DNA of 64,000 nt from Glaciihabitans sp. (GTDB lineage: Bacteria > Actinomycetota > Actinomycetes > Actinomycetales > Microbacteriaceae), in the NCBI GenBank assembly GCA_025463785.1, contig JAODBD010000003.1, positions 525,287-589,286 of the forward strand, in the 5' to 3' direction. The notes beneath the pieces are model-generated. The model worked only from the letters and a program-made list of their open reading frames with translations. It had not been told where the DNA came from and did not search any database. Within the stretch, counting starts at the first letter, position 1, and each line of letters starts with the position of its first letter. Positions 11,455 to 53,920 of the stretch are shown here, piece by piece. The translations under genes and the position numbers were made by a program.

Positions 11455-11650
11455 GTCCTCAGTTCTGAGGCTCCGGGGATTGGTCGTGTGAGACCTGGTG
11501 CGTGGCGACGCCAAACACCGTGTGCTGCCTCCCATCCGGACTTTAACCGTCGGTCTCGGAGTTTCACCGAGTCAACCGCGTCGACTTTCGTCTGGACGGC
11601 TCGTGGACTATCACCACCGGTTCGGACTCTCACCGACCCCGGAGCACGTT
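11455..11650 (-). ncRNA. FMN riboswitch (RFN element) with an SD-sequestering expression platform
   Basis: The minus strand reads GUGCUCCGGGGUCGGUGAGAGUCCGAACCGGUGGUGAUAGUCCACGA...GGUGAAACUCCGAGACCGACGGUUAAAGUCCGGAUGGGAGGCAGCAC, which matches the conserved RFN core. The downstream hairpin CCUCAGAACUGAGG (plus-strand 11457-11470) includes the ribD SD. Confidence 0.92.
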
Positions 11651-17040: not shown

Positions 17041-17994
17041 CTAGTGACGGGCACCGACTTCGGAGCCCGGCATCCCGCTCACGGGTACGTGGCGGTCATC
17101 GACGGCGACCCTGATCCAGGATGCCGAAATCAGGATCACCTGGCAGACGAAGTTGAAGAAAATGAGCAGCCCGAGGATGACTGCGAACGAGGCGAGCAGC
17201 GGATTGCTCTTCGACACGCCGAGCAGGCTCCCGCCCAGCACTTTCAACGCTCCAAGGCCGAGCGCCCCGGCCAGGACGCCGCCGCGCAGTCGCTTCCACG
17301 GGATCTCGACGCCCGACAGCACGCGGAACAGCGCACCGAGGATCGTCGCATCGAGCGCGAACATGACGGCGAGCGTGACGATGCGCCCCGCTATTGCCCC
17401 GAGCACCGAGTTCGACGAGACTCCGATGAGCGGCAGCAGCGCTGTCGTCCCAGCCGAACCGGCCACCGAGAGGGCCGCCGAGACGATCAGCAGGATCCCG
17501 AATCCGACCGCGACCCCGAGGTCTTTGAGCTTCAGCATGACGAAGTTGGTCTTCGGCTGCGGCAGCCCAAAAATGATGCGGATGGCCGCCCGCGCCGACG
17601 CGAGCCAGCCGAGCGCCGTGACCAGGACGCCGACCAGGGCGATCGCCCCGGTCCAGGAGAAGACCCCGGCGTTGAGGAGTACCTTCGGATCGATCGCGCC
17701 CGAGGATGAACCAGGCTGCTTGATCAGTCCCGGAATGCTGTTCGAGAGCGCATCGATGATGGGCTGCTGGAGCTGGTGGTTGCCGGCGACGACCAGTCCG
17801 GCAATCGAAAACCCCACCCAGACGCCAGCGAACACGGCGAAAATGGCCTGGTAGGCGAGGCCGCTGGCGAGAATCGGCCCCTGCACGGCGCCGTAGTTGA
17901 GAAACACGCGCACGGCAAACAGTTTTTGCACCCGAACGACCAGAACGCCGAACTTTCCTGACTTTCTCGGGTGCCTGATTTCATCCTGCGTCAC
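17041..17994 (-). CDS. YihY/BrkB family membrane protein
   Basis: 317 aa polytopic protein with the N-terminal pattern NYGAVQGPILASGLAYQAIFAVFAG typical of the YihY family. Confidence 0.8.
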   Translation of the reverse strand: MTQDEIRHPRKSGKFGVLVVRVQKLFAVRVFLNYGAVQGPILASGLAYQAIFAVFAGVWVGFSIAGLVVAGNHQLQQPIIDALSNSIPGLIKQPGSSSGAIDPKVLLNAGVFSWTGAIALVGVLVTALGWLASARAAIRIIFGLPQPKTNFVMLKLKDLGVAVGFGILLIVSAALSVAGSAGTTALLPLIGVSSNSVLGAIAGRIVTLAVMFALDATILGALFRVLSGVEIPWKRLRGGVLAGALGLGALKVLGGSLLGVSKSNPLLASFAVILGLLIFFNFVCQVILISASWIRVAVDDRHVPVSGMPGSEVGARH

Positions 17995-18180
17995 CGTTCC
18001 ACCCTAGGGCGCCCATTCGCGGCCCCGGATGGGGTTGCGCGCGTCGGAGAATTGCCCCATAAGTGGGGGCAGGCGGTGGAGTCTGTGAGTATCTTTCGCT
18101 GTTACCTTCGGAGAACCTGTGCTGCATCCGAGCGCCCGGTAAGTGTGCGGCACGTTCTGCCGCTGTAGTCGAGGTATGCC

Positions 18181-21100
18181 ATGTCAGCGATCAGTACCCG
18201 CCGCGCGACGTTCCCGAAGCGGAATCTCACGAAATACCTCGGACTCGCCACCGCTGTCATTCTGGGCGTCGGACTCCTGAACGGCCTCGCGGTTTCAGCT
18301 GCGCAAGCCACCCCAACGGCGTCGCTGGTGGTTCGCCTGCTATCGCCAACGGGCAAGGTGGTAAAGGATGGCGATGTCGTCGCGTTCCCTATGACCAATG
18401 GCAGCTATGACGCTTCGCGACCCATCGTCGACCTCCCGCCTGTCGCACACCACCCCGGCACTTACGCAGCAGATGGTTTTGTGGCGGGAGACACCGAGAC
18501 GCTGGTCCTGTTTGGTTCTCCCTCGTCCTCTTTGGCGGCTCAGTTCCTCGGTGGCGGCCAGGACCCGGACTCGGCAACTATCCTCACCCTGACGGCCGGC
18601 GCGAATTCCCTCGACGCGTCATTCGCGCCGTCCGGAACAATTAGTGGAACCGTCAAGAATGCCAAGGGCAAGGCCATCGCAAATGTCTGCGTCGAGCCCT
18701 ACCAGTTCGATGGCAAGAATTGGAATTCCATCGGCGGGTCCTTCTTTGGTTGCGGCGCTTGGACGAACTCGAAGGGCAAGTACAGCTTCAACCCTGGCAG
18801 CGCTGGCAGCTACAAGCTCGAGTTCTTCGACCAGACCGGAAAATATCTGCCACAGTTCTCGAACGGGGCGGCGGACGTTGCGGATGCGACATCCATCTAC
18901 CTGAATGACGGAAAGTCGGCGACAGTAAACACCATCCTGTCGCTTGGCGGCAGGATCAGCGGCAAGCTGGTCGCCCCCGGCGGCGTGCCGCTTGACCTCC
19001 AGGTCGACGCGTACCAGCTGACCGGAAATCCGACTGACGGCTTCACCGCGTCGTCGCGGGTCGGCATCTACACGGAGTCGAACAGCCACGGGTCCTTCAC
19101 ACTCACCGGTCTTCCCACCGGATATTACGCACTCGGCTACGAGGACCCGTTCGACGGCTCGGGCGCCGGATTTATCGGCGGCGACCACCCGACGGATGCG
19201 ACGCCGTTCCTCGTGACCGCGCCGGCGACCACGGCTATCGGCACGACGACGATCGGCGCTGCCGCGACCGTGACCGGAACGCTCGGCGTAACGCTGACGG
19301 GCCCAAGTGGTGTACCGCTGCAAAACGAAGATGGTTCTGTCTGGCTCACCACGTCGGATGGTGCCGACTACTATCCGGCCAGTTCGACCGGCAACGTCTA
19401 CCACTTCACGCAACTCCCAGCCGGTGACTACCATCTTGTCGCTGACATCGTGGGAGACTTCGGCCCGCTATTCGAGCCAGTCGTGCAGGCCATCACCACC
19501 CATGCGACCAACGAAACCCGGAGCCTACAGGTCGGCACCTATGCGCCGGTCGCTTTCACCTCGGATGCCTCGCTCTCGACACTCTCTCCGATCGCGGGCA
19601 GCCAGCTCAGCGTTGACCCGGGCACCGTTAGCAAGACGGCCCCCAATTCGACAACCGGTTACCAGTGGTTCCGGACGGTGAACGGTGTTCGGCTGCCGAT
19701 CCGCGGCGCGAAGTCGGCTACGTACACGCCGACCACGGGCGATGTTGGCGACATCCTGAGCGTGCGGGTTACCCAGATCTACGAGCTCGATGCAGACCGG
19801 GAATACATCAGCCAGGAGGAGACCGATCAGCTGGTCGCCGCGTCGGATGCCGTCGCCAACGGCCCGCAGATCACGTCATCTGGCCAGCCACAGTTGACCA
19901 CCGAGGGAGCCGCGCGTGTGGGCTCACCGATCGGCGTCGACCCTGGCAACTGGAGTGTCGCCGGGGCACACTACGCGTACGAGTGGTTCCGCGGGACCGA
20001 CCCCATCATCGGCCAGACGGGCTCGACCTATACGCCGGTGCCAAGCGATCTCGGCGACTCGATCTCCGTTCAGGTCACCGCATCCAAGGTCGGATTCGTG
20101 ACGTCGGATGCCGCCGCGAGCGGCCCGGTCACGATCGGCAAAGGCATCCTGACCGCAATCACGTTGCCCAGGGTCATGGTGACGAAGTCGCACGGCATCC
20201 GCCACTTTGCGGTGACCTCGGGCACCTGGTCTGCCCCAGATTCCACTGTCAGCTACCAGTGGAATCTCGACGGAAGTCTTGCCGGCACTGGCAAGACCTT
20301 CACCTACTCCGGGAAGTCGGCTGCGGTGACTGCCGTAGTGACGGCGGCGAGCGATGGTTACGCGGACAGCTGGCAAACGGTAATTGCAGCGAAGGGCGTC
20401 TTCGCTGCCGGTGCGAACTGCAGCCTGCAAACTCAGTCGCCCCTGCTCTTCCAGGTGAACCTGAGCGTCGGTGTACTCTGCCAGAGCCTCAACCTCCCGA
20501 GCGGGAGCGGAGAGATTGTTGTGGCGACGAATTGGCAGCGCCTCGTGTACGGCAAGTGGGTCACGATCTCGCACTCGAAGTCCGGCGCATACACGACCAT
20601 CGCCGCCGACATGGGCAGAACCATTCGAATCGGGATGGGCGTCCACTCCGACTACTACACGTCGCCTGTCAACTACGAAGAGACGACCTTCACCGGACGG
20701 ACGGATCTGCAGGGCAACGCAACGGCGACCATCTCGCCGTCGCAGGTCGCGCTCGGGGATGTTGCATCCGTATACGTGACCGGCCTGCCCGTACCCGGAA
20801 TCACCCACAGCTACCAGTGGCAGTACCAGCACAACGGCGGAGCATGGACCACGATTTCAGGCGCGACAAAGTCGAGCCTGAGCGTGAAGTCGCCGGTATC
20901 GACTGGCGACCAGCTGCGCGTTGAGGTCACGAGCATCGCGCCGGGGTTCATCTCCGCGACGATTGACAGCTCAGCGGTTTCGGTGGTCGTCAAGACCGTC
21001 ACGAACCTGACGCCACCGACTGTCTCGCCGGATGGCGTCCCCGCGGGTGGTACGGCCACGGCCAAGCCGGGAACCTGGAACGCGAAGAGCCTTACCTTCA

Positions 21101-22410
21101 CCTACCAGTGGCAGCTCGATGGCACCGACATCCCGAGTGCGACGGCCATGACCCTCATCACCGACCTGTCGCAGGTTGGTCATCAGCTGACGGTCACCGT
21201 CGTCGGCCACAGGTCTGGCTACCTGGACTCAGACGCGGTTACCTCGGCGCCGGTCGACGTGCTCGCAGCCATCCAGCCGCCGCTGACCCCGGCCGGTGCC
21301 TCGCTCACGGGCGTCAAGTACCTGTCGACTGCGACGACACCGGACCCCAACACGGCGTTCGGCTTCCCGTCGACGTTCCACTCCTTCGCAACCACCTACA
21401 AGTGGACGTTGTCGGGCAAGACTCTCGCTGGAATCACGGGGCCAACCTACGTGCCGAAGTCGAGTGACATCGGCAAGTCGTTGAGCGTCACGATGTCGTA
21501 CAGCTCGGCGTTCTACCAGTCGGGGAGCGAAACTTCGCCGAAGTACACCGTGCAGAAGGCCGACCCGGTGCAACTCGATGCCCAACTCGAGCCGTCCAGC
21601 GGGTCGTATGCGCCAGGAACCGTTCTGACGGCGTTCACTGATTCGACGAGCGGTTCACCGGTCACCGTGCAGTGGCAGTCCTCGCTCGATGAGTCGACCT
21701 GGACCAACATCTCGCACGCGACGAAATCGACGTACACGCTCGCTCCCGCGGATGCCGGCAAGTGGATTCGCGCGGTTGTCACCTCCCACACGAAGAACCA
21801 CCTGGACTCCATCGTCACCACCGGTGACGTCTCGGTTGACTACCTCGGTGCCCTGACGGCCCTTTCGGCGCCGACCATCTCAGCACCGCAGGTTGGCGTG
21901 GCTACGACGATCAACAGTGGTTTGTGGTCCGCAGGCGGCGTGACGGTTGCATACCAGTGGATGCTGGACGGCCAGGCGATCCCGGGCGCAAGCTCGGCGA
22001 CCTTCACGCCGACCGGCACCCTGGTTACCCAGGACCTCTCGGTTGAGATCAGTGCGAGCAAGGTGGGTTGGTCCGGGCATCCCGTGGTCGAATCCAATAC
22101 CGATGCAATCGCGTTTGGCGCCGTCCTGACCGTGGTGACCAAGCCAGTTATCACGGGAAGCGCAAAGACCTGCTCGACGCTGACGGTCACCCCGGGGAAG
22201 TGGAAGGTCGGCGGCACGGTCGTCACCTACCAGTGGTTCGCGGACGCCAACCCGATCGGTGGCGCGACGGGATCGACGCTGACGATCCCGTCGAATGCGG
22301 CTGGCGTGAAGTTCCACGTCGAATTGACGGCTAACGCTCACGGCTACTTGCAGGGCGTATACGACACGGCCAGCACGGCGGCGACTACCGCAGCGGCGAC
22401 CTGCCACTAG
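18181..22410 (+). CDS. giant secreted repeat protein 1 (carboxypeptidase-regulatory/Cna-B-like beta-sandwich modules followed by about 10 Ig-like YxW...GATxxTY...VxVT repeats)
   Basis: 1409 aa with a signal peptide ...GLAVSAAQA/TP. There is no LPXTG motif and no C-terminal TM. The repeat period is about 85-95 aa. Confidence 0.85.
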   Translation: MSAISTRRATFPKRNLTKYLGLATAVILGVGLLNGLAVSAAQATPTASLVVRLLSPTGKVVKDGDVVAFPMTNGSYDASRPIVDLPPVAHHPGTYAADGFVAGDTETLVLFGSPSSSLAAQFLGGGQDPDSATILTLTAGANSLDASFAPSGTISGTVKNAKGKAIANVCVEPYQFDGKNWNSIGGSFFGCGAWTNSKGKYSFNPGSAGSYKLEFFDQTGKYLPQFSNGAADVADATSIYLNDGKSATVNTILSLGGRISGKLVAPGGVPLDLQVDAYQLTGNPTDGFTASSRVGIYTESNSHGSFTLTGLPTGYYALGYEDPFDGSGAGFIGGDHPTDATPFLVTAPATTAIGTTTIGAAATVTGTLGVTLTGPSGVPLQNEDGSVWLTTSDGADYYPASSTGNVYHFTQLPAGDYHLVADIVGDFGPLFEPVVQAITTHATNETRSLQVGTYAPVAFTSDASLSTLSPIAGSQLSVDPGTVSKTAPNSTTGYQWFRTVNGVRLPIRGAKSATYTPTTGDVGDILSVRVTQIYELDADREYISQEETDQLVAASDAVANGPQITSSGQPQLTTEGAARVGSPIGVDPGNWSVAGAHYAYEWFRGTDPIIGQTGSTYTPVPSDLGDSISVQVTASKVGFVTSDAAASGPVTIGKGILTAITLPRVMVTKSHGIRHFAVTSGTWSAPDSTVSYQWNLDGSLAGTGKTFTYSGKSAAVTAVVTAASDGYADSWQTVIAAKGVFAAGANCSLQTQSPLLFQVNLSVGVLCQSLNLPSGSGEIVVATNWQRLVYGKWVTISHSKSGAYTTIAADMGRTIRIGMGVHSDYYTSPVNYEETTFTGRTDLQGNATATISPSQVALGDVASVYVTGLPVPGITHSYQWQYQHNGGAWTTISGATKSSLSVKSPVSTGDQLRVEVTSIAPGFISATIDSSAVSVVVKTVTNLTPPTVSPDGVPAGGTATAKPGTWNAKSLTFTYQWQLDGTDIPSATAMTLITDLSQVGHQLTVTVVGHRSGYLDSDAVTSAPVDVLAAIQPPLTPAGASLTGVKYLSTATTPDPNTAFGFPSTFHSFATTYKWTLSGKTLAGITGPTYVPKSSDIGKSLSVTMSYSSAFYQSGSETSPKYTVQKADPVQLDAQLEPSSGSYAPGTVLTAFTDSTSGSPVTVQWQSSLDESTWTNISHATKSTYTLAPADAGKWIRAVVTSHTKNHLDSIVTTGDVSVDYLGALTALSAPTISAPQVGVATTINSGLWSAGGVTVAYQWMLDGQAIPGASSATFTPTGTLVTQDLSVEISASKVGWSGHPVVESNTDAIAFGAVLTVVTKPVITGSAKTCSTLTVTPGKWKVGGTVVTYQWFADANPIGGATGSTLTIPSNAAGVKFHVELTANAHGYLQGVYDTASTAATTAAATCH

Positions 22411-22462
22411 GGATTAGGGCCGGAATAGCCCGCTGAAACTGGTGCGGTTATGAGACGACCGA

Positions 22463-22520
22463 AGGTTTTTCGCGCCCCGGCGTCATAGTAGGTAGACCTG
22501 TCAGTCTCTATCAGCGAGGG
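22463..22520 (+). promoter_or_regulatory. conserved block upstream of the ECF sigma gene (AGGTTTT-N10-GCGTCATAGTAGG plus about 25 nt)
   Basis: AGGTTTT at 22463-69 and GCGTCATAGTAGG at 22480-92. The same bipartite motif with identical spacing recurs at 24184-24213. Confidence 0.5.
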
Positions 22521-22583
22521 ATGCCACTAGGCAAACCCCACCCCACGCGGGACAATATAGAGGCCCGAGAATGGATCAGGGGG

Positions 22584-24185
22584 ATGAGCGAAGCTGACGA
22601 GAGCCTAACCAGCTCAGACGAAACACTCATTGCGAATGCCCGGTCGGGGGACCAGGGCGCATTCGCGGAGTTGTGGCGTCGTCATTATCGCTCGGGGGCG
22701 CGTGTCGCCCGCCAGTTCACGTCGTCCATAGATGCCGACGACCTCGTTTCTGAGGCCTACACGCGCATCTATCAGCGTGTTCTGGCGGGCGGCGGCCCTT
22801 CCGGAGCATTCAGGCCATACCTCTATACGACCATCCGCAATCTGGCTTCGAGCTGGGGTGCGGCTTCCCGTGACGTACAGGTGGATGACATTCAGGATTT
22901 CGAAGACCCGACGACGATTGACGACCCCGTCGCCGTCGCCCTCGACCGCACGCTCACCGCGCGAGCGTTTCGCTCGCTGCCCGACCGCTGGCAGTCCGTC
23001 CTTTGGTACACCGAGGTTGAGGGGATGGACCCCCACGAGGTCGCTCCGCTGCTCGGGATGAGCGCGAACGGCGTTGCTGCGCTGAGCTATCGTGCCCGGG
23101 AAGGGCTGCGCAAAGCCTGGCTTCAGGCGCACGTGTCCGAGCCCGGGACCTCGGAGTTCTGCAGGTGGACGATGTCGCGTCTCGGCGAGGCGGCCCGCCA
23201 CAGCCTCACCACGCGCGAGCAGGAGAGGATCGACGAGCATCTCCAAACCTGCGCGAAATGCGCGATCGTCAGCGAGGAGGTCGAAGAAGTCGGATCGCAC
23301 CTGGCGATGATTCTGCTGCCGATCATCCTCGGTGGCGTTGCGGGTGGAGTGTTGCTGTCGACGTTGGGTCACGCCGGCGCTGCCGTCGCAGCGAGCGCAG
23401 CAATCCCTTCGGTGCCCGCCTCCTTCGCGGTTCTCTCGGCGCCTGCAGCATTCGCTCCAGCCGTCGGATCCGGACTGGCCATGGGCGCGGCGAGCGGTGT
23501 CAGCGCCCTCGTCGGCACCCTTGCGGTTGTCGCCACCATCGGCGGCAGCATCGCGATTGGGCTTGCGCCGTCGCAGGGTGCGCAGGATGCCGGGCAGACG
23601 ACCTCGGCATCCGCTCCGCACACCAACTCACCCTCGAACGGCACGTCCTCGGCGGGCCACAGCGGCTCCGGTCTGACGCCCATCGGTACTGCGTTGGGCG
23701 CGCTGTCCACCCCATCGGCTACCGACCCCTCGAATCTTGGCGGCACCGCTGGCGTTGGTGGACTGGCTGGCGGCCTGACGAACACTGTCGGCAGCGTCGC
23801 GGGCGGGCTCGGCAATGACGTCAGCAAGGTGGTCGGCGGTGTCAAAACGGTGATTGTTGCTCCCTTAATCGGCGCTCTCACACCGAGCGCTCCTCCGGCC
23901 GGTCACACTGCCGCGGGCGGCGCACCCGTCACAGCAAAAGTGCAACTCGCCGGTAAAGGCACGCCAGGTGCAACCGTCTCGGCGCAAGCGGGCGGGATGC
24001 TTTACGGCACTGCGAAGGTCGCATCCAACGGCAGGTGGTCACTTCTGGTGACCGCTCTTCCCGCTGGGACCGGCACTTTACAGCTGCAACAGCGACTGAG
24101 GGTGCTCGGTATCGAGCTGCCAATCAACATCCCACTGACCCTCAATACCGCCGCACTGGGGATCGTAATCCAGCTTCTTAACTAG
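22584..24185 (+). CDS. ECF sigma factor fused to a ZAS-type anti-sigma motif, one TM helix, an Ala/Gly/Ser-rich spacer and a C-terminal Ig-like domain
   Basis: Region 2 reads DLVSEAYTRIY...FRPYLYTTIRNL and region 4 reads LPDRWQSVLWYTEVEGMDPHEVAPLLGMSANGVAALSYRAREGLRKA. These are followed by C-x26-H-LQT-C-AK-C (HxxxCxxC) and the TM LAMILLPIILGGVAGGVLLSTLG. The ATG at 22584 was chosen as start; the ORF is open from 22521. Confidence 0.85.
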   Translation: MSEADESLTSSDETLIANARSGDQGAFAELWRRHYRSGARVARQFTSSIDADDLVSEAYTRIYQRVLAGGGPSGAFRPYLYTTIRNLASSWGAASRDVQVDDIQDFEDPTTIDDPVAVALDRTLTARAFRSLPDRWQSVLWYTEVEGMDPHEVAPLLGMSANGVAALSYRAREGLRKAWLQAHVSEPGTSEFCRWTMSRLGEAARHSLTTREQERIDEHLQTCAKCAIVSEEVEEVGSHLAMILLPIILGGVAGGVLLSTLGHAGAAVAASAAIPSVPASFAVLSAPAAFAPAVGSGLAMGAASGVSALVGTLAVVATIGGSIAIGLAPSQGAQDAGQTTSASAPHTNSPSNGTSSAGHSGSGLTPIGTALGALSTPSATDPSNLGGTAGVGGLAGGLTNTVGSVAGGLGNDVSKVVGGVKTVIVAPLIGALTPSAPPAGHTAAGGAPVTAKVQLAGKGTPGATVSAQAGGMLYGTAKVASNGRWSLLVTALPAGTGTLQLQQRLRVLGIELPINIPLTLNTAALGIVIQLLN

Positions 24186-24240
24186 GTTTTGGGTTCTCTC
24201 GCGTCATAGTTGGCTGTCTGCTGGGTCTCTTCTGGGGGAG
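24184..24240 (+). promoter_or_regulatory. second copy of the conserved block (AGGTTTT-N10-GCGTCATAGTTGG...)
   Basis: AGGTTTT at 24184-90 and GCGTCATAGTTGG at 24201-13. It starts inside the sigma gene's stop codon and lies about 300 nt upstream of giant gene 2. Confidence 0.5.
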
Positions 24241-24287
24241 CCCAGAACTCCCGCGCTCGCGGATAGGTGCCGCGTGCGTGCAGCAGG

Positions 24288-24319
24288 CCCCGCCGTGGCC
24301 GAGGTCGCGGCGGGGTTTC
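24288..24319 (+). terminator. GC-rich hairpin followed by TTT (terminator or attenuator)
   Basis: CCCCGCCG at 24288-95 pairs with CGGCGGGG at 24308-15 across a 12 nt loop, followed by TTTCG. Confidence 0.45.
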
Positions 24320-24528
24320 GCTGCGTGCGGGCGACTGGCTCTTCGGCAAAAAAACCCCGATTTCAACCGAATTGCCAAAATTGTTACCGTGTCCCAACTA
24401 ATCACCCCCTTTTGGGGTGCGATGAATCCTCGGGAACGCTGGTACGTTTCACATCGAGCGACTGCATACCGTGCGTTGACGTCTGGGCCGTCTTGTCGTT
24501 TTTCGCATCAAATGTTGGGTCGATCATC

Positions 24529-27500
24529 GTGCTTTCTCGCTTCTCCGTGTCTTCTTCTTCGCGTTTTCTCACCGCAGCCGTTGCTGCTCTCGCGATCGGG
24601 GCCATGGCCGCGATCGGGATTGTTGTGATCCCCGCTCAGGCGACCGTGTCGAATCCGTCCGTCACCGTGACCGTGGCTGACGATCTGCACGGATTGGTCG
24701 GCGGGGCGCAGGTGACCGCGTACGAGCAGAGTAACTTCGACCCGTCCTGGAACTACCACGAGGCTCAGACAACGAGTTCCGCTGGCACGGTAACTTTCAC
24801 GAATCTCGACAGTGCCTCGCACTTCAAGTTTTTCGTCAATATCGCTCAGGCGGATCCGGGCCAGGTAAACAATGACGCGGGTGGCTGGATTAACGGGGCG
24901 AATTCGCCGACTCTGGTCCCCGACTCGACGGGAGCCGCAGACGTAATTACGGCCTCGAGCGCGATCTCGATTCCCATTACGCTAGCCGTCGGCAACGTCG
25001 CATCCGGCACCGCTCTCCTTCCAGACAACAGTGTGCTCGTCGGCGGCAGCGCCGACGTTTCGGCCTACCGGCTGACCTCGAATTTCACGACATCCACTCC
25101 CGAACTCGACTATGTTGCGAGGGCACAGGTGGCCGGCGACGGCAGTTACACTCTGCCCGGGCTTCAGGATGGCAGCTACTACTTCCGTCTCGATGACTAC
25201 GCAAGCCCCGCTGACGGGTTCGCCCAGATCACTTACAACGCGGCAGGCGTCCTTGCGCAGGGCAGAACAGACGGTCTCACGGCGGTGGATGTTCATGGCG
25301 CCGTCGTTCAGTCTGTCCAGTTGGCCGCGGCCTCCTACATCACCGGAACAGTGTCGGCCAACCCGGCGCTCAGCGGCATCGGCTCGGGAATCACCGTGTA
25401 CGCGAACCCGGTGAATGACAACGGCACCCTCGACACCACGAGCCTCAACGGCATCGCGCAGGATCAGGCCAACGTCGACCTCACAAACGGCAGCTATTCC
25501 ATTGCCCTCGTGCCCGGCAAATATAAGGTGCAGTTCTACCCGTACAACGTGACCAACTCGTACCCGCAGTGGTACAACAACGCATACGACTCCTCGACCG
25601 CGACGACGGTGACAGTGGACGCGGGCGGCACCACAACCGGAATCGACGCGGCGCTGACTAACGGATTCACCCTGAAGGGTACAGTCACGGCCGGGAACGG
25701 GCATCCTGTCGCCGGCGTCACCGTCGCGCCGGTCGGCACGCTGAACTTTCAAGATGTGACCCCCGTCGTAACAGCGGCAGACGGCAGCTACGAGTTCGAC
25801 AACCTGGCACCGGATGCCTACCAGATCGAGTTCAATGGACAAGCTGCCGGGTACCCGGATGTCTACCTTTCGAGCGGTCCGCACGGATCATCGAACATCA
25901 CCGATGCGGTGACGGTCGGCTCAGTATCGGACACTCAGACAGTCAACTTCGATTACCGTGCGATCTCGACGCTGACCGTCCACCTCGCCAACAAGGCGGG
26001 CGCACCGATTAAGGGTGCGACCATCTACGCCGAGTCGGTCGTCGCTGGCCAGCCGGTATACGACTCGAACCTCGTGATTTCCGTGCCAGTTGTCGGCAAG
26101 ATCGGCAGCTACCGCATTGCGGGGCTCGCAATCGGTGACCCGTACACGCTGGAGATCTTTCCGTCGACAAGCACCAAGGCCGAGGGTTACTTCCCGCAGT
26201 ATCTGGGTGGTAGCCCGGTCAATGACTCCGCGGATGCCGAGGCCTTCGTCGCTACCGACCCGACCCAGTCGCTCGACGTGACAGTGCAGGCGGCGGCGGC
26301 CATCGGCGGAACCGTGACCTCGGCATCCGGCGTCGCGCTGAAGGGTGTCGGAGTATTCCTCTATCGATTCGATGGGACCTACTGGAACGAGATCGACCAG
26401 ATCAGCACCTCCTCGACCGGTAAGTACTCCTACCCGAACGAGCCCGTCGGAAGCTACAAGCTCGAGTTCTTTGCGGGCTTCGGGGTTTCGGGGAAATACA
26501 CCAACTCGTATAACGGCGGGGCGTCCACTCTCGATCAGGCGAAGCCGCTGTACGTCAAGCCCGGATCTCCTCTGACCGTCAACGCAAAGCTATCGACCGG
26601 CGGCTCGATCTCCGGTGTGCTGAAGGCTCCAGACGGTTCTACCCAGTTCGGCTATGGTGTGACGGCCTACCGTCTCAGCGGAACGCCGGGCGCATTCACC
26701 TCGTCGACCATCGTTGACGGCACCGGAGGCGAAACTGGCACGGGTGGAAAATACACCGTGACAGGTCTGGCATCCGGTTACTACGCGCTGAGCTTCTCGC
26801 AGGGCATTGGCCCGACATCGACGTATGGGGATGCCTTTGACCCAGCCCACCCTGGCGCGCACTACGTCAAGGTGACCGCCGGCAAGAGCGTCAGCGCGGG
26901 AACCTCGACGCTGACCGCGCTCGGCAGTGCCGCGACCGGCATTGTCAACGGCCAGATCGTCGGCGGCCCGTCGAATGCGACCGGCACAGTGAGCTTCAGT
27001 TCGAGCGACTATCGATACAACTTTGCGTTGTCGATCAATTCGGATGGCAGCTTCTCGGGCGCGCTCGTACCCGGCACCTACACGTACAGCGTTTGGGTAA
27101 ATGCTGACTCGTCCGGCACGACGTACGAGCCGGAGGTCGGCACCATTACCATCGCGGCCGGCGCGAACGCGGTGCAGGTCGTCACGCGGCCAACGGTACC
27201 GCTGAGCTTCACGACCTTGCCGGTCGTTTCATCGCCCGGCAGCTCGACCGAGGTCGGCACAACCTTTACCGTTGACGCGGCCTGGACGCGTGCGTCGACG
27301 GCTTATGTGCAGTATCAGTGGCTGCGCGACGGTCACGCAATATTCGGTGCAACCGGGACAAGCTACACGGCCGTCGGTGGGGATGCCGGATCCACGATCG
27401 CCGCTCGCGTTCTGGTTCAGGACTACACGATCGATATCTCCACCATCGTCGGAGTCGCCGAAATCGGTGGCGATGGCACGGTGGCTCCGTCCACTGCCCT

Positions 27501-29223
27501 CGCGAGCGATTCATCGAATCTGCCGAGCATTTCGCCTTCCGGAGTCGCGTTTGCGGGACAGACGTTGACGGCATCCCCTGGGCAATGGGGTGTTTCGGGC
27601 GCAACGTTCGCCTACCAGTGGTACCTCGACGCAACGCCCATCAGCGGCGCTCGCAGCCGCACGTACAAGACTCTGCTGTCGCAGGCGCATCACGGCATCA
27701 CCGTGACCGTGTCGGCCACCAAGCCCGGGTACGTTACGCCGCCCGTGGCGACTTCTGGGGATGTAATCATCGATGACCAGCTGGGGTTGCATTCCACGAT
27801 CTCGCCCGTCGTCACGGCAAAGAAGGTTGGCGGGCTCACTCAGTACAGCGTCTCAACGGGTAGCTGGTCGGTCGCGGGAGTGACGTACGAGTACCTGTGG
27901 CGCGCGGATGGAAGCGGAATTTTTGGGGCCGAGAGTAAGACGTACACACCTGCGGCCGGAAACGAAGCCATCACGGTTGACGTCTCCGCGGTCAAGCCCG
28001 GGTACGTGACCGCACAGAAGACCGTGCTCGCACGGCGCGGCATCAATACCAACATCGAGCCGGCACCGGATGTCTATGTCGGGACCACCCAGGTAACCTC
28101 GGACACCCAGCCAGTGAAGGCAGGCGAAAGCCTCACCGTCGATCCGCACGCGGACCAGTGGAGTGCGGTGCAGAACCAGAGGTTCACGTTCGGCTACAAG
28201 TGGGAACGCCAGACCGGCAGCACGTGGGCCGCAATCACCGGCGCCACCAAGTCGGCGTACACAGCATCCACGTCGGATGTCGGGCACAAGCTCAAGGTCA
28301 TCGTCTCGACGGCGTCCCCGTACTACGCGACGCGTAGCTTCACCCAGGCGGCCGGGCTCGGCACCACCGGCGCTCCGACGAACTTCGCCGGACAGGCAGG
28401 GATGAGCTACACGGGCACGTTCCAGCCGGGCACCACAGTTTCGGCGAAGCTGAGCGAATTCCCGACGGGTGAGACGTACACGTATCAGTGGCAGAACAGC
28501 CTGACGAGTGTCGACAGCGACTTTGCGGACATCGCAGGGGCGACGAAGTCGAGCTATGTCATCCATTCGGGCGACGCCGAGAAGTATCTTCGAGTTGTCG
28601 TAACGGCTACCCACGCCGGCGCGCACTCGACGGCTATCTCGGTCTCTCAGCAGGTTTCGGACCTGACAACGTTGGCCACGGTGTCGCCCGCCAGGCTGTC
28701 GGGGTCTGGCGCGGTGGGAACCACGCTGACCCTGGATCTGGGCGTGTGGAACATCGCGGGGGCGACCTATTCGTACCAGTGGTACCGCGGCGACATCGCG
28801 ATTCCGGGGGTGACCGGCACGACGTATAGTCCCATCGGTAGCAGCCTCGGCGATGAGATCTCGGTTGTCGTCCATGCGACTCGGAAGGGTTACACCTCAG
28901 GCACCGCGACCACCAACACGGTCAAGGTGATTGCCGGTGCTCAACCGACGGCATCCACGAAGCCGAAGATCACGGGCACGCTGAGTGACGGATCGACCGT
29001 AGCTGCGACGACGGGCATCTGGAGTTTGGACGGTCTGACCTTCAGCTACCAGTGGATGGCCGGGACGACTCCGATTGCCGGCGCGACCGCAGACACGTAC
29101 CTCGTTAACGCGAATGACCTGTGCGGAGCGTCGCTCAGTGTCGTGGTAACCGCTACGCGCCCCGGGTATCTTTCGGGCGGGAGTCAGAGCCTGGCATTCG
29201 GGACACTGCCGAGCGTCTGCTGA
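24529..29223 (+). CDS. giant secreted repeat protein 2 (paralogue of protein 1; beta-sandwich modules followed by about 7 Ig-like YxW repeats)
   Basis: The ORF is open from 24274. GTG 24529 was chosen as start (TTG 24514 is an alternative) because it gives the signal peptide MLSRFSVSSSSRFLTAAVAALAIGAMAAIGIVVIPAQA/TV. It shares GSYKLEFF modules and a 20 nt identical stretch with gene 1. Confidence 0.85.
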   Translation: MLSRFSVSSSSRFLTAAVAALAIGAMAAIGIVVIPAQATVSNPSVTVTVADDLHGLVGGAQVTAYEQSNFDPSWNYHEAQTTSSAGTVTFTNLDSASHFKFFVNIAQADPGQVNNDAGGWINGANSPTLVPDSTGAADVITASSAISIPITLAVGNVASGTALLPDNSVLVGGSADVSAYRLTSNFTTSTPELDYVARAQVAGDGSYTLPGLQDGSYYFRLDDYASPADGFAQITYNAAGVLAQGRTDGLTAVDVHGAVVQSVQLAAASYITGTVSANPALSGIGSGITVYANPVNDNGTLDTTSLNGIAQDQANVDLTNGSYSIALVPGKYKVQFYPYNVTNSYPQWYNNAYDSSTATTVTVDAGGTTTGIDAALTNGFTLKGTVTAGNGHPVAGVTVAPVGTLNFQDVTPVVTAADGSYEFDNLAPDAYQIEFNGQAAGYPDVYLSSGPHGSSNITDAVTVGSVSDTQTVNFDYRAISTLTVHLANKAGAPIKGATIYAESVVAGQPVYDSNLVISVPVVGKIGSYRIAGLAIGDPYTLEIFPSTSTKAEGYFPQYLGGSPVNDSADAEAFVATDPTQSLDVTVQAAAAIGGTVTSASGVALKGVGVFLYRFDGTYWNEIDQISTSSTGKYSYPNEPVGSYKLEFFAGFGVSGKYTNSYNGGASTLDQAKPLYVKPGSPLTVNAKLSTGGSISGVLKAPDGSTQFGYGVTAYRLSGTPGAFTSSTIVDGTGGETGTGGKYTVTGLASGYYALSFSQGIGPTSTYGDAFDPAHPGAHYVKVTAGKSVSAGTSTLTALGSAATGIVNGQIVGGPSNATGTVSFSSSDYRYNFALSINSDGSFSGALVPGTYTYSVWVNADSSGTTYEPEVGTITIAAGANAVQVVTRPTVPLSFTTLPVVSSPGSSTEVGTTFTVDAAWTRASTAYVQYQWLRDGHAIFGATGTSYTAVGGDAGSTIAARVLVQDYTIDISTIVGVAEIGGDGTVAPSTALASDSSNLPSISPSGVAFAGQTLTASPGQWGVSGATFAYQWYLDATPISGARSRTYKTLLSQAHHGITVTVSATKPGYVTPPVATSGDVIIDDQLGLHSTISPVVTAKKVGGLTQYSVSTGSWSVAGVTYEYLWRADGSGIFGAESKTYTPAAGNEAITVDVSAVKPGYVTAQKTVLARRGINTNIEPAPDVYVGTTQVTSDTQPVKAGESLTVDPHADQWSAVQNQRFTFGYKWERQTGSTWAAITGATKSAYTASTSDVGHKLKVIVSTASPYYATRSFTQAAGLGTTGAPTNFAGQAGMSYTGTFQPGTTVSAKLSEFPTGETYTYQWQNSLTSVDSDFADIAGATKSSYVIHSGDAEKYLRVVVTATHAGAHSTAISVSQQVSDLTTLATVSPARLSGSGAVGTTLTLDLGVWNIAGATYSYQWYRGDIAIPGVTGTTYSPIGSSLGDEISVVVHATRKGYTSGTATTNTVKVIAGAQPTASTKPKITGTLSDGSTVAATTGIWSLDGLTFSYQWMAGTTPIAGATADTYLVNANDLCGASLSVVVTATRPGYLSGGSQSLAFGTLPSVC

Positions 29224-29234
29224 TTGGTTGAGAC

Positions 29235-29268
29235 AACTCTCGCGCCCCCGTTCTGGGGCGCGAGAGTT
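29235..29268 (+). terminator. strong hairpin (14 bp perfect stem) after giant gene 2
   Basis: AACTCTCGCGCCCC (29235-48), CGTTCT loop, GGGGCGCGAGAGTT (29255-68). Confidence 0.7.
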
Positions 29269-29325: not shown

Positions 29326-30882
29326 ATGGATTTCATCGACACCTCCATCCGGCTCCCGGAGCAGTTAGCCGCAGCTTCTGCTGCCCTGTCTGCGGTGTCG
29401 AGTGACGTCATCGAGTATCGCGCAGTGGACGATGCGATGTTGCTCGCTCTCAACAGCTCGAGCGCCGACGTTCTGCGGCTTGCGCAGGCGACTGCGGCGC
29501 TCATTGCGGGTGAGATCGCGCGCAGATCGGCTCCCGGCCTGGGTCAAAACGGGCTCGTGCAGCGTCTGGGCCATCGCACGCCAGAGCAATTCATGAAGAA
29601 GTCCACCGGTGCGACGGGGCAGCAGGCGGTCACCGCAGTTCGAGTCGGGCGGATGGTGCAGGATGCCGCAGATGCCGGCGTTGTGGACGTCTCAACCGGT
29701 GAGATCACTGCTGCCGTCGAGCCATGGTTGGCGCCCGTGGCTGCTGCCATTGTCGCGGGCCCGATGACCACTTCTGCTGCCGAGGCGATTGCCCGCGGGC
29801 TCGGGCAGCCAACGCCCGGAGTCAGCGAGGGCGATCTTCTGGTTGCTGCCCGCGCTCTCTGCGCTGAGGCCGCTGCGGGGGTTGATCCCGACCTGCTGTT
29901 TCGCCGGGCGCGACAGCTTCGCGACGAGATCGATGTGGATGGCATCGGTGAACGTGAGGCCGAGCGTCGCAAGCAGCGCTCCCTCACGTTCGTCCAGCTG
30001 CCGAGCGGGATGTCGCGGCTGACCTGGGTCATGGACCCAGAAACCGCTGCGACCGTGAAAGACCTCTATGACCGTGCGACCTCGCCGAAGCTCGGTGGGG
30101 TGCGCTTTGTCGATCCCGATCAGTCGACCCTGGCTGAAGCGATTCGGGCCGATGACCGCACTCCGGCGCAACTGGCATCCGACGCGTTCGAGCAACTGTT
30201 ACGGGCAGGAGCTGACGTTGGCGGGATTGGTCGGGTTGGCGGCGCGGGCGGAGCTGGTGGTCATGGTTCTGCTGGTGCTGGTGCTGGTGCTGGTGCTGGT
30301 GCTGGTTCGGGTTCGGGTTCTGGTTCGGGTTCTGCTCCGCGTGCGGGGATTCTGCTCGGCTCCGGGGCACCGGTCATTCACATTGCGGCAACGCGCTCCG
30401 CCGTCGAGCGCCGCCGCGGTGCGGCGTACATCCGGGGTCAGGCAGACCCGGTTTCGATCGAGACGCTTGAACGGTTGGTCTGCGCGGGCAGTCACAGTGA
30501 GACGGGGTTCGATCCCGCGGGCATCCCGCTCGATCGTGGTCGCGACCAGCGGCTATTCACCGCGAAACAGAAGCAGGTGCTCGCGCTGAGGTGGGGTGGC
30601 TGCGTTCATCCGGGATGCGAGCGGCCGCCGTCCTGGACGGAAGCTCACCATATTGACCACTGGGTCAGGGATCACGGCAAGAGCGACATTGCCGACGGCG
30701 TTCTGCTCTGCAAACACCATCACCTGCTGCACCACAACAAACGGTGGGAGATTCGGCGCGATGAGGGCGGGCGGTATTGGTTGATTCCCCCGACGGAGGT
30801 TGACGCGGCGCAGGCGCCCATCGAGCTGCACGGCAACAGTCGCGTCATGCGAGAACGCGCGCGCGAAGAGCAGTACGCCTAG
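29326..30882 (+). CDS. DUF222 + HNH endonuclease domain protein (13E12-repeat-family-like)
   Basis: 518 aa. The C-terminus reads C..PGCERPPSWTEAHHIDHW...LLCKHHHLLHHN (HNH). There is an internal (GA)n(GS)n linker. Confidence 0.85.
   Translation: MDFIDTSIRLPEQLAAASAALSAVSSDVIEYRAVDDAMLLALNSSSADVLRLAQATAALIAGEIARRSAPGLGQNGLVQRLGHRTPEQFMKKSTGATGQQAVTAVRVGRMVQDAADAGVVDVSTGEITAAVEPWLAPVAAAIVAGPMTTSAAEAIARGLGQPTPGVSEGDLLVAARALCAEAAAGVDPDLLFRRARQLRDEIDVDGIGEREAERRKQRSLTFVQLPSGMSRLTWVMDPETAATVKDLYDRATSPKLGGVRFVDPDQSTLAEAIRADDRTPAQLASDAFEQLLRAGADVGGIGRVGGAGGAGGHGSAGAGAGAGAGAGSGSGSGSGSAPRAGILLGSGAPVIHIAATRSAVERRRGAAYIRGQADPVSIETLERLVCAGSHSETGFDPAGIPLDRGRDQRLFTAKQKQVLALRWGGCVHPGCERPPSWTEAHHIDHWVRDHGKSDIADGVLLCKHHHLLHHNKRWEIRRDEGGRYWLIPPTEVDAAQAPIELHGNSRVMRERAREEQYA
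30262..30335 (+). repeat. in-frame hexanucleotide microsatellites (GCTGGT)n then (GGTTCK)n inside the HNH gene
   Basis: ...GGTTCTGCTGGTGCTGGTGCTGGTGCTGGTGCTGGTGCTGGTTCGGGTTCGGGTTCTGGTTCGGGTTCT..., which encodes SAGAGAGAGAGAGSGSGSGSGS. Confidence 0.85.
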
Positions 30883-52903: not shown

Positions 52904-53920
52904 ATGAACACGCCCAAAACACTCGCCATCGTCGCAGCGTTCGCACTTACGCTCGGGGTGATCGCAGCGCCATCTGCCGCATTTGCGACCGCAACCGGTA
53001 CCGTCACGGTGCAGCTGGTGAAGCCGTCCGGAGCGAAGCTCGCCGTCGCAGGTATTGATGAAACCATGCTCTACCGCCACAACGGCACCGTCCTGTGGGC
53101 GCACTTCGCGGTCAGCGACGGTACGGGCAAGGCGACGTTTCCCGGCGCACCGGCCGGAGTACACCTCAATCTGAGCACGTCGAGTAACTCCACCTACCTT
53201 TCAGCCTCCAAGGGTGGCATCGTCGCTAAGGCAGGCAATTCGGTGTCGGTCAAGTTGTCGGTCGCCGTGGGCGCGACGATCGGTGGCATTCTCACGAAGA
53301 CGGGTGGGCTTCCGGTTCCCGGGGCAACTGTCGCGCTCTTCAACTCACACGGCAACCGCGTCGGTCTTGGTACGACGAGCGCCACCGGCGCCTACCAGAT
53401 CGCCCCGATCCGGAGCGGCAAATACAAGGTGCAGTTCAATTCGCGGGCGGTCACCAGTCTGTCGCCGGCCGCGACCAGCATGAGCTGGTCGTACTGGAAG
53501 AACAGCACGAGCTGGACGACAGCGACCTACGTGACGGTGAAGCAGCAGACGGCGTACGCTTCGGCATCCCATCCCGCCAGCATCAACGGCTTCGTCAGCG
53601 GCCAGTTCGTGCTCACAGTAGACGTGAACCTGACGGGTAACCACGGGTCGGCCGACGTGTTGTTCGTCAGCCAGCGCAAGGCGGAAAACTTCGTGACCAA
53701 GGTGGATGCCGCAGGCACGAGCTTTCAGTCGTACCTCAATGCGGGCAAGTATCGCATCGCGATCATCGGCGCCTACGATCCGATCGTTGGGGCATCCCCG
53801 GTCTACTGGTACCGCGGTGATTTGACCGGGCCGACCCTGAGCGAAAGCAAGGCGACCTGGGTCAGCTTTGGCGCAGCCAACAAGACCATCTACTTCGAGG
53901 ATCAGCCACCGACGTTCTGA
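52904..53920 (+). CDS. secreted protein with carboxypeptidase-regulatory-like beta-sandwich modules (small paralogue of the N-terminal parts of the giant proteins)
   Basis: Signal peptide MNTPKTLAIVAAFALTLGVIAAPSAAFA/TA. The module GGILTKTGGLPVPGATVALFNSHGNRVGLGTTSATGAYQIAPIRSGKYKVQF resembles those of the giant proteins. Confidence 0.75.
   Translation: MNTPKTLAIVAAFALTLGVIAAPSAAFATATGTVTVQLVKPSGAKLAVAGIDETMLYRHNGTVLWAHFAVSDGTGKATFPGAPAGVHLNLSTSSNSTYLSASKGGIVAKAGNSVSVKLSVAVGATIGGILTKTGGLPVPGATVALFNSHGNRVGLGTTSATGAYQIAPIRSGKYKVQFNSRAVTSLSPAATSMSWSYWKNSTSWTTATYVTVKQQTAYASASHPASINGFVSGQFVLTVDVNLTGNHGSADVLFVSQRKAENFVTKVDAAGTSFQSYLNAGKYRIAIIGAYDPIVGASPVYWYRGDLTGPTLSESKATWVSFGAANKTIYFEDQPPTF

Follow-up and report, generated by a model that had tools for sequence, protein, structure and literature searches.

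A single-chain ECF sigma/anti-sigma protein of Microbacteriaceae with a paired promoter-like motif and a candidate small RNA

A 64,000-nt stretch of the genome of Glaciihabitans sp. (Microbacteriaceae; contig JAODBD010000003.1), hereafter the window, carries a gene (22584..24185) for an extracytoplasmic function (ECF) sigma factor that continues, in one chain of 533 aa, into a zinc-binding anti-sigma (ZAS) domain, membrane segments, a linker, and an immunoglobulin (Ig)-like domain. All coordinates are those of this 64-kb window, on the + strand unless stated otherwise. A bipartite ECF-type motif, GCGTCATAG-N13-GTCTCT, stands upstream of the sigma gene and again just past its stop codon, where a candidate small RNA follows. 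We consider it moderately probable that the product is a self-inhibited, membrane-anchored ECF sigma factor with two targets, its own gene (through the upstream motif copy, P1) and the small RNA (through the downstream copy, P2), and that the giant secreted proteins encoded on either side are accessory cargo.

An earlier note on this DNA had listed three same-strand open reading frames (18181-22410, 22584-24185, and 24529-29223). It had read the middle product as sigma regions 2 and 4, a zinc anti-sigma motif, membrane, linker, and Ig-like domain, in that order. The reading frames are borne out, as is the domain order, the latter by Pfam, NCBIfam, AlphaFold, and alignment. Taken as a whole, the observation in that note is partly confirmed and its interpretation partly supported.

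The fused sigma factor and its family

Sigma regions 2 (aa 30-88) and 4 (aa 127-173) are encoded at 22671..23102 (+) and recognised by Pfam, NCBIfam, and Foldseek. Sigma70_r2 matches above the Pfam cut-off (E 3.9e-7), and the ECF-specific model TIGR02937 (sigma70-ECF) scores 61.8 bits against a cut-off of 42.9. Sigma70_r4_2 stays below its cut-off in the window protein and passes in five of the ten sampled family members that were scanned for domains. The protein thus has regions 2 and 4 only and matches an ECF-specific model, which is the make-up of an ECF (group 4) sigma-70 factor. A longer reading frame for the gene opens at 22521 (554 aa rather than 533 aa). The start at 22584 is backed by a Shine-Dalgarno sequence and start codon, GGATCAGGGGGATG, in every orthologue, and frame-breaking indels among the orthologues 5' of 22584 support it further.

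The ZAS motif (aa 193-227; 23160..23264, +) is recovered by zf-HC2, by alignment, and in the structural model, and its domain begins about 20 residues past sigma region 4. The zf-HC2 match (E 3.5e-6) reaches 27.4 bits against a cut-off of 22.2. Alignment of 30 homologues shows C193, H219, C223, and C226 to be invariant and gives the spacing C193-x25-H219-x3-C223-x2-C226, which corrects the C-x26-H proposed earlier. AlphaFold models this part as three helices, with a predicted local distance difference test (pLDDT) of 77-89. An HxxxCxxC motif with an upstream Cys ligand is therefore placed in a helical domain, as the definition of a ZAS domain has it. Matches from Foldseek and from a PDB profile search are to sigmaE/RseA, SigL, AlgU/MucA, and SigW/RsiW structures. 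In the full model, the sigma and ZAS parts have pLDDT 70-90 and the stretch before the Ig-like domain falls below 50. The predicted template modelling score (pTM) is 0.28 for the full length and 0.48 for residues 1-240, meaning that the domains are modelled with confidence and their mutual placement is not.

Behind the ZAS domain lies a hydrophobic block (23301..23564, +) in which an Ala/Pro-rich stretch separates segment 1 (aa 240-258) from segment 2 (aa 309-327). The earlier note had counted one transmembrane (TM) helix; two strongly hydrophobic segments, at about 240-258 and 309-327, are kept in all 30 homologues. Their Kyte-Doolittle values are 2.0-2.5, and their summed insertion-scale values run from about -0.7 to +2.1. 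The Ala/Pro-rich stretch between them, which holds a conserved IPAVPASF motif, scores as non-TM (+4 to +5.5). Not one D, E, K, or R occurs in the 99-residue block from 236 to 334. With two hydrophobic segments and not one, the Ig-like domain could lie on either side of the membrane. Charged residues make up 7% of the C-terminal part as against 26% of the N-terminal part (medians of the 30 homologues). This low C-terminal charge, together with the Big_13, Big_6, Big_7, and fn3 domains of homologues, favours a predicted topology in which the Ig-like domain is exported, after one or three passes.

The linker (aa 335-445) contains 21% Gly, 14% Ala, 13% Thr, 13% Ser, and 8% Pro. Its earlier description as a low-complexity Ala/Gly/Ser spacer is not borne out as worded; it leaves out the Thr richness and the Pro. 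The last 88 or so residues (aa 446-533; 23919..24182, +) are modelled by AlphaFold as an Ig-like beta-sandwich with strands at pLDDT 70-76, in agreement with the C-terminal module of about 90 aa noted before. On this domain Pfam gives Big_3_5 below cut-off (E 5.8e-4); Big_6 and Big_13 are recognised in the extensions of homologues.

Sequence comparison places the sigma gene in an orthologue family found throughout Microbacteriaceae, with Ig-like domains at the end of the extension. Its full-length homologues number more than 100 and share 53-92% identity. A filter-only search with residues 1-240 against 1.84 billion representatives returned 2466 clusters (formed at 50% identity) at E <= 1e-30; the best 150 of these 2466 align over both sigma and ZAS, and nearly all are 350-1190 aa long. 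Big_13, Big_6, Big_7, or fn3 domains occur in the extension of six of the ten sampled members. Sampled members with a name come from Rathayibacter/Glaciibacter and Microbacterium, and other named homologues from Glaciihabitans, Galbitalea, and Pseudolysinimonas. The position of the gene is constant, between trpS, Exo_endo_phos, and BrkB-family genes (-) on one side and the sdhCDAB operon (-) on the other.

An ECF sigma factor that shares one chain with its own anti-sigma domain and a membrane anchor is an already known actinobacterial type. A 2022 review describes ECF48, ECF52, and ECF53 of Actinobacteria as sigma factors extended by a ZAS domain and by one or two TM helices, and expects their activation to occur by proteolysis, as for the IutY fusion of Pseudomonas putida (PMC8999054). 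With sigma, ZAS, and one to two TM segments in an actinobacterium, the window protein has the fused membrane anti-sigma build so defined (PMC8999054), and the earlier mention of ECF52 points to the right class. Like ECF48, ECF53, and ECF52, including SCO4117 of Streptomyces coelicolor, it joins regions 2 and 4, ZAS, TM segment(s), and a long extension in one chain. ECF48/52/53 are confined to Actinobacteria and proteolytic release has been proposed for them; the named relatives found here are Microbacteriaceae. ECF52 differs in its proline-rich extension, in place of which the window protein has a Gly/Ala/Thr/Ser-rich linker with 8% Pro, and in its carbohydrate-binding module, where the window protein has an Ig-like end. 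No carbohydrate-binding module was found by Pfam, which gives Ig-like families only (Big_3_5 here; Big_6, Big_13, Big_7, and fn3 in relatives). ECF48/52/53 are not mentioned in the main text of Casas-Pastor 2021.

The earlier statement that no mechanistic description existed does not hold for this class, as SCO4117 has been studied genetically and regulated proteolysis proposed. Keeping only the sigma domain gave a strain whose developmental phenotype was milder than that of the full deletion, and the authors suggested that a protease excises the sigma domain (PMC5826349). That a tethered, self-inhibited sigma factor needs release or a switch is also how the literature reads ECF48/52/53 (PMC8999054, PMC5826349). 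The promoter proposed for SCO4117, CSGYN-17-SRHA, differs from the motif described below (PMC5826349). IutY likewise combines sigma and anti-sigma in one membrane protein, undergoes regulated intramembrane proteolysis by Prc and RseP, and is constitutively active when truncated (PMC8999054). It is, however, a proteobacterial FecI/FecR-type protein with a TonB receptor partner and without a ZAS motif, and is not an orthologue of the protein described here. RsrA (partner of SigR), RslA (SigL), and RsiW (SigW) share with it the HxxxCxxC motif, the upstream Cys, and the helical anti-sigma domain, and the modelled sigma part has structural matches to the sigma chains in solved complexes of sigma with anti-sigma, SigW-RsiW for example. 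In those systems the anti-sigma factor is a separate polypeptide, whereas here ZAS is fused to sigma.

The motif pair and the RNA behind the sigma gene

The motif copies flank the sigma gene in the same orientation. P1 (GGCGTCATAGT-N-GTCTCT; 22479..22511, +) has GTCATA at 22482-22487 and GTCTC at 22504-22508. P2 (24200..24232, +) begins 15 nt past the sigma stop codon and has GTCATA at 24203-24208 and GTCTC at 24225-24229. A position weight matrix (PWM) built from 97 sites, none of them from the window, was scored on both strands of the 64 kb. P2 obtains 33.0 bits, the highest score in the window, and P1 31.5 bits; no third site of at least 8 bits exists on either strand. The form that the motif takes in the window, GGTTTT-N11-CGTCATAGT, occurs in two exact copies, P1 and P2, and has no further match in the 64 kb with three mismatches allowed.

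Comparison with relatives used loci from a metagenome scan (L-numbers below), as a genome-contig scan yielded only three. P1 is found in 62 of 79 loci, about 100-130 nt before the sigma start, and P2 or the RNA behind it in 51 of 64, with or without giant genes. Across loci, the blocks GCGTCATAG and GTCTCT(T) are conserved, with 16 nt separating GTCATA from GTCTC, and the DNA 5' of the blocks is not. A first parse, with GGTTTT as -35 and CGTCATAGT as -10, was dropped as the favoured one because the logo shows the upstream part to be unconserved and GTCTCT to be conserved at a fixed spacing; it is retained as a mere alternative. We read the motif as a putative -35 element CGTCATA and a putative -10 element GTCTC.

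The closest described signature is that of ECF41 promoters, TGTCACA-n16-CGTC (PMC3426412). The two are alike in the GTCA-type -35, the 16-nt spacer, and the GTC-type -10, and differ in the flanking bases (here CGTCATAG and GTCTCT). The sigma factors differ as well, ECF41 sigmas having a soluble SnoaL-like extension where the sigma factor described here has ZAS and TM segments. A conserved putative -35/-10 motif upstream of its own gene is what the sequence of an autoregulated sigma gene would be expected to hold, and autoregulation is usual among ECF sigmas. From this and the ECF-promoter geometry, P1 is read as an autoregulated promoter and P2 as a second target.

Between P1 and the start codon lies a conserved, non-coding 5' leader of the sigma gene (22509..22583, +) with the boxes GGGACA and UGGAUCAGGGGGAUG. 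It is conserved at the nucleotide level in orthologues of 48-100% protein identity, with frame-breaking indels, which suggests post-transcriptional control. A hairpin precedes the two boxes.

In most loci, the roughly 100 nt after P2 fold into three hairpins: a short one at the 5' end, a second, and a long, GC-rich one at the terminus. The loop of the second is (C)GACGUCC(CA), and that of the terminal hairpin is GAUCCCAGCC or a CCCAG variant. The C-rich loops GACGUCCCA and GAUCCCAGCC are present in most genera, and CCCAGAA in the subclade of the window. Support for base pairing comes from two alignments, a structure-blind MAFFT alignment of 15 sequences and a covariance-model alignment of 28 hits, which is fitted to the model and so favours the structure. 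The structure-blind alignment has 90% of cells pairing, as against 41-44% with partners slid, and compensatory changes in 15 of 23 pairs. In the covariance-model alignment, 93% of cells pair, as against 37-45% with partners slid, and 21 of the 23 pairs covary. None of 500 shuffles reaches the observed values in either case. Base pairs are thus kept through compensatory changes, as in a structured non-coding RNA. The covariance model was seeded by the 15 sequences with a hand-checked structure; this structure replaced a MAFFT and RNAalifold consensus on 24 RNAs, which was poor, with 10 pairs and misaligned hairpins. The model recovers non-seed loci directly past the sigma stop codon with E down to about 1e-20 (e.g., L031, L035, L047, L071, L074, L001, and L044).

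Folding, conservation, and position place the candidate RNA of the window, a variant of its subclade, at 24231..24322 (+). An invariant hairpin GGGAG-CCCAGAA-CUCCC comes first, the middle hairpin is variable, and UUUC follows the last, a GC hairpin of 17 bp (CCCCGCCG...CGGCGGGG-UUUC); the RNA folds at -60.4 kcal/mol (z -3.9). This variant is conserved in L003, L004, and L008 and is the positional equivalent of the covarying family. Example positions, with P2, are 24200-24322 in the window, 11581-11711 in L005, and 11629-11738 in L020. At the gathering threshold, Rfam 15 has no match to the RNA of the window or of four other loci, 6C included, and at E <= 10 gives chance-level matches only (L005 11540-11840; window 22400-24560). 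The next gene in most loci is sdhB, which is convergent, and so the RNA is not a leader for a downstream gene. A consensus terminator scan does not call the terminal hairpin, because its U-tract is short.

Some complementarities between RNA loops and leader boxes are recorded as leads only, namely GUCCCA with UGGGAC and GAUCC with GGAUC. In one clade (L005, L018, L020, L022, L026, L061, L066, and L086), the leader sequence GGACGUCG is the exact complement of the hairpin-2 loop CGACGUCC, and in L086 a flanking base is altered on both partners (GGACGUCAC vs GUGACGUCC). The self-complementarity of GACGUC and the restriction to a subset of loci limit the weight of this match.

The envelope-stress sigmaE of enterobacteria has a non-coding arm to its regulon, the small RNAs (sRNAs) MicA, RybB, and MicL, and the MicL promoter lies within a coding gene or at its end. 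Hairpin loops rich in C, as in the actinobacterial 6C RNA, suit G-rich ribosome-binding sites. The RNA described here resembles these in being a dedicated non-coding arm of a sigma factor, as proposed, in having its promoter-like motif at the end of a coding gene, and in its C-rich loops. It has no sequence or covariance-model relationship to them in Rfam 15, and, unlike the sigmaE sRNAs and 6C, it is encoded in physical linkage with the sigma gene throughout a bacterial family.

The giant neighbours

The sigma gene of the window is flanked by two genes for giant secreted proteins. Giant 1 (18181..22410, +; 1409 aa) has a signal peptide, beta-sandwich modules, and Ig-like YxW repeats. Giant 2 (24529..29223, +; 1564 aa; a longer reading frame opens at 24274) is its paralogue, with 31% identity over 1132 aa (E 8e-82). 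Both have a signal peptide, a CarboxypepD_reg/SdrD_B-like N-terminal part, and SCAB-Ig/AIR9/ZirU-like YxW repeats, and neither contains an LPXTG motif.

The earlier note had treated the three genes as a functional unit and had called for a synteny check. Of 84 distinct loci, the window's own copy included, 59 are informative for the upstream side of sigma and 53 for the downstream side; giant-like genes lie there in 5 and 6 of them, respectively. Relatives also show clean indels, so the arrangement does not stand as a unit. Giants adjoin sigma on the same strand in seven loci, all of one subclade, with none to two per side. There is one on each side in the window, in L008, and in L001, where the downstream one is cut off at the contig end. 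L004 has one upstream and two downstream; L003 has two downstream, its upstream side being cut off at the contig end; and L089 has none upstream and two downstream. In L088, one giant lies upstream and one 367-aa relative downstream. In L062, L081, and L015 (sigma 82-89% identical over the part seen), the BrkB-family gene is joined straight to the sigma gene, and giant 1 is a clean indel of about 4.4 kb (window 17926-22573 vs L062 8573-8815, L081, and L015; flanking genes with 72-83% DNA identity). L080 (1-416) has an unrelated gene upstream of sigma, and its homology to the window (94% DNA identity) breaks exactly at the P1 motif (window 22481). The variable giant content and the clean indels indicate that the flanks of sigma are insertion-prone and that the giants are cargo.

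The giants share an element of their own. A palindrome, CCCC(C)-N4-5-TGGGG, stands about 100-150 nt before the start of all 14 giant genes examined (11 in five loci and three in L088 and L089). In the window it is CCCCATAAGTGGGG upstream of giant 1 (18055..18068, +), an element specific to the giants and distinct from the sigma motif, and CCCCCTTTTGGGG upstream of giant 2 (24405..24417, +). A TAnnnT hexamer often trails it. The palindrome, seen in L003, L004, L008, L001, L088, and L089 as well as in the window, could serve as an operator or form a hairpin in RNA, or it could be a scar left by insertion. A GC-rich hairpin after giant 2 (29235..29268, +), whose core is again this palindrome, CCCC-N-GGGG, is a likely terminator; the consensus terminator scan does not call it, its U-tract being short. 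The sigma motif is absent upstream of giant 1, of the other upstream giants, and of the second downstream giants, where the best PWM scores are negative (-12 bits for giant 1). Giant 2 and the other first downstream giants, its counterparts by position, start 240-330 nt after P2 and past the terminal hairpin of the RNA, so that read-through past this hairpin is the sole possible link of giant 2 to sigma.

The gene at 52904-53920 (+), for a 338-aa secreted CarboxypepD_reg/SdrD_B protein, had been named as a possible further target; neither the sigma motif nor the palindrome of the giants is found upstream of it. Between giant 2 and sdhB lies a DUF222 gene (29326-30882, +), also present in L088. 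DUF222 genes are often tied to HNH-endonuclease-type mobile genes, and its presence fits an insertion-prone site. A flavin mononucleotide (FMN) riboswitch (RF00050, 93 bits; 11520-11649, -) upstream of a riboflavin operon is ordinary.

A model and its alternatives

At rest, the ZAS helices, with C193, H219, C223, and C226 probably holding zinc, would pack on sigma regions 2 and 4 in cis, and the hydrophobic block would keep the fusion at the membrane. On an envelope signal, the chain would be cut in the membrane segments or close to them; in another version, the anti-sigma domain would be loosened when the zinc site is oxidised. Release by proteolysis or a redox switch is proposed by analogy with known systems. 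The released sigma part, of about 190 aa, would join RNA polymerase. P1 would then drive the sigma gene through its conserved leader, giving positive autoregulation, and P2 would drive a structured RNA of about 100 nt with C-rich loops. The analogy of sigmaE-dependent sRNAs and of sRNAs with C-rich loops suggests that it may act on G-rich ribosome-binding sites. The giants are most likely secreted, adhesin-like cargo, inserted in one subclade beside a conserved sigma-RNA module, and not part of the core regulon.

Several points count against this model. The motif regex fails in about 20% of loci, chiefly the most distant ones (about 50% identity), and the -35/-10 assignment could shift, a sigmaE-type -10 being similar to CGTCATA as well. 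That P1 and P2 depend on the sigma factor is deduced from conservation and geometry, and docking of ZAS on sigma in cis is presumed, the pTM of 0.48 for residues 1-240 not demonstrating it. The protein is placed beside ECF48/52/53 by its domain architecture and not by phylogenetic group. The covariance model does not recover a full-length match to the window's own RNA, a diverged subclade variant, and a crude RNAduplex search for pairing of the RNA with the leader showed nothing significant over shuffled controls (median z 0.1). Lastly, because the U-tract of the terminal hairpin is weak, P2 transcripts could run into giant 2.

Since sigma-driven transcription at P1 and P2 is read from the DNA itself, the two sites might instead be operators at which another DNA-binding protein brackets the gene, and the RNA might be the structured 3' untranslated region and terminator of the sigma mRNA. 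The RNA does occupy the position expected of a terminator, and a conserved GTCTCTTC..GTGAGG extends beyond the proposed -10. The motif is nevertheless directional, and both copies point the same way; the two blocks, held at a fixed N16 spacing, fit ECF promoter geometry and the ECF41 precedent; ECF sigmas are usually autoregulated; and a terminator would not need two internal hairpins whose loops are conserved and whose stems covary. We regard the operator-and-terminator reading as improbable. It is also unlikely, if slightly less so, that the giants are direct members of the regulon or ligands of sigma, being transcribed by the released factor or sensed by it, roles for which the earlier note had called them the obvious candidates. 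Their same-strand adjacency in the seven loci, the constant 240-330 nt between P2 and the first downstream giant, and an intervening hairpin with a weak U-tract are compatible with such a role. Yet they are missing from about 90% of the informative loci, including the relatives with 82-89% identical sigma; the motif occurs in the window at 22479 and 24200 only, and upstream and second downstream giants have negative PWM scores; and a different palindrome is common to all giants. Moreover, the supposed link between the Ig-like domain of sigma and the modules of the giants finds no detectable sequence similarity (E >= 0.2).

Two further alternatives concern how the protein sits and how it is switched on. 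The chain could form a two-pass hairpin with both ends in the cytoplasm, including the Ig-like domain and the linker, in which case the Ala/Pro loop of about 45 aa with IPAVPASF would be the sensor or the cleavage site. Two conserved segments of TM-like hydrophobicity with a non-TM stretch between them agree with this, as do the one to two TM helices reported for groups of the ECF48/52/53 type (PMC8999054). Against it, the charge of 7% in the C-terminal as compared with 26% in the N-terminal part is a composition typical of exported actinobacterial sequence, and three passes are conceivable because the entire 99-residue block is uncharged. Big-type Ig and fn3 domains, as found in homologues, are mostly extracellular, and we are inclined to doubt the hairpin. 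Activation could also be a thiol/zinc redox switch of ZAS without proteolytic release, the membrane part merely localising the protein. RsrA, which would be the precedent, has the ligands C11, H37, C41, and C44; this spacing equals the C-x25-H-x3-C-x2-C found here, and all four ligands are invariant. Many ZAS proteins, however, are not redox sensors, and a membrane-tethered sigma factor would hardly be able to act on chromosomal promoters after a conformational change alone. Reviews favour proteolysis for the fused class (PMC8999054), and a purely redox-driven switch seems rather unlikely.

A wider version of the proposed model, which we put forward tentatively, is that across Microbacteriaceae a tethered sigma factor is hard-wired to an sRNA by a duplicated promoter, that the loops act on G-rich ribosome-binding sites, and that in one subclade the giants were captured behind the RNA, gated by its hairpin. 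Possible targets of the RNA would be the sigma leader, whose UGGGAC and UGGAUC are complementary to two loops, or mRNAs for envelope and secreted proteins.

Fused sigma/anti-sigma proteins have been catalogued, and their release and targets are barely known; SCO4117 alone has been studied, and its promoter motif is uncertain. The family described here offers a very sharp predicted motif with two conserved targets per locus, the sigma gene and a small RNA, in cultivable genera such as Microbacterium and Rathayibacter, so that release, promoter specificity, and output are open to direct test. The synteny corrects an assignment by association, as the giant neighbours are lineage-specific cargo at an insertion-prone site. 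The class itself is already known, and the sigma-plus-RNA module is the part worth following: the RNA would join a short list of candidates for ECF-dependent sRNAs in Actinobacteria and would add a new family to RNA databases.

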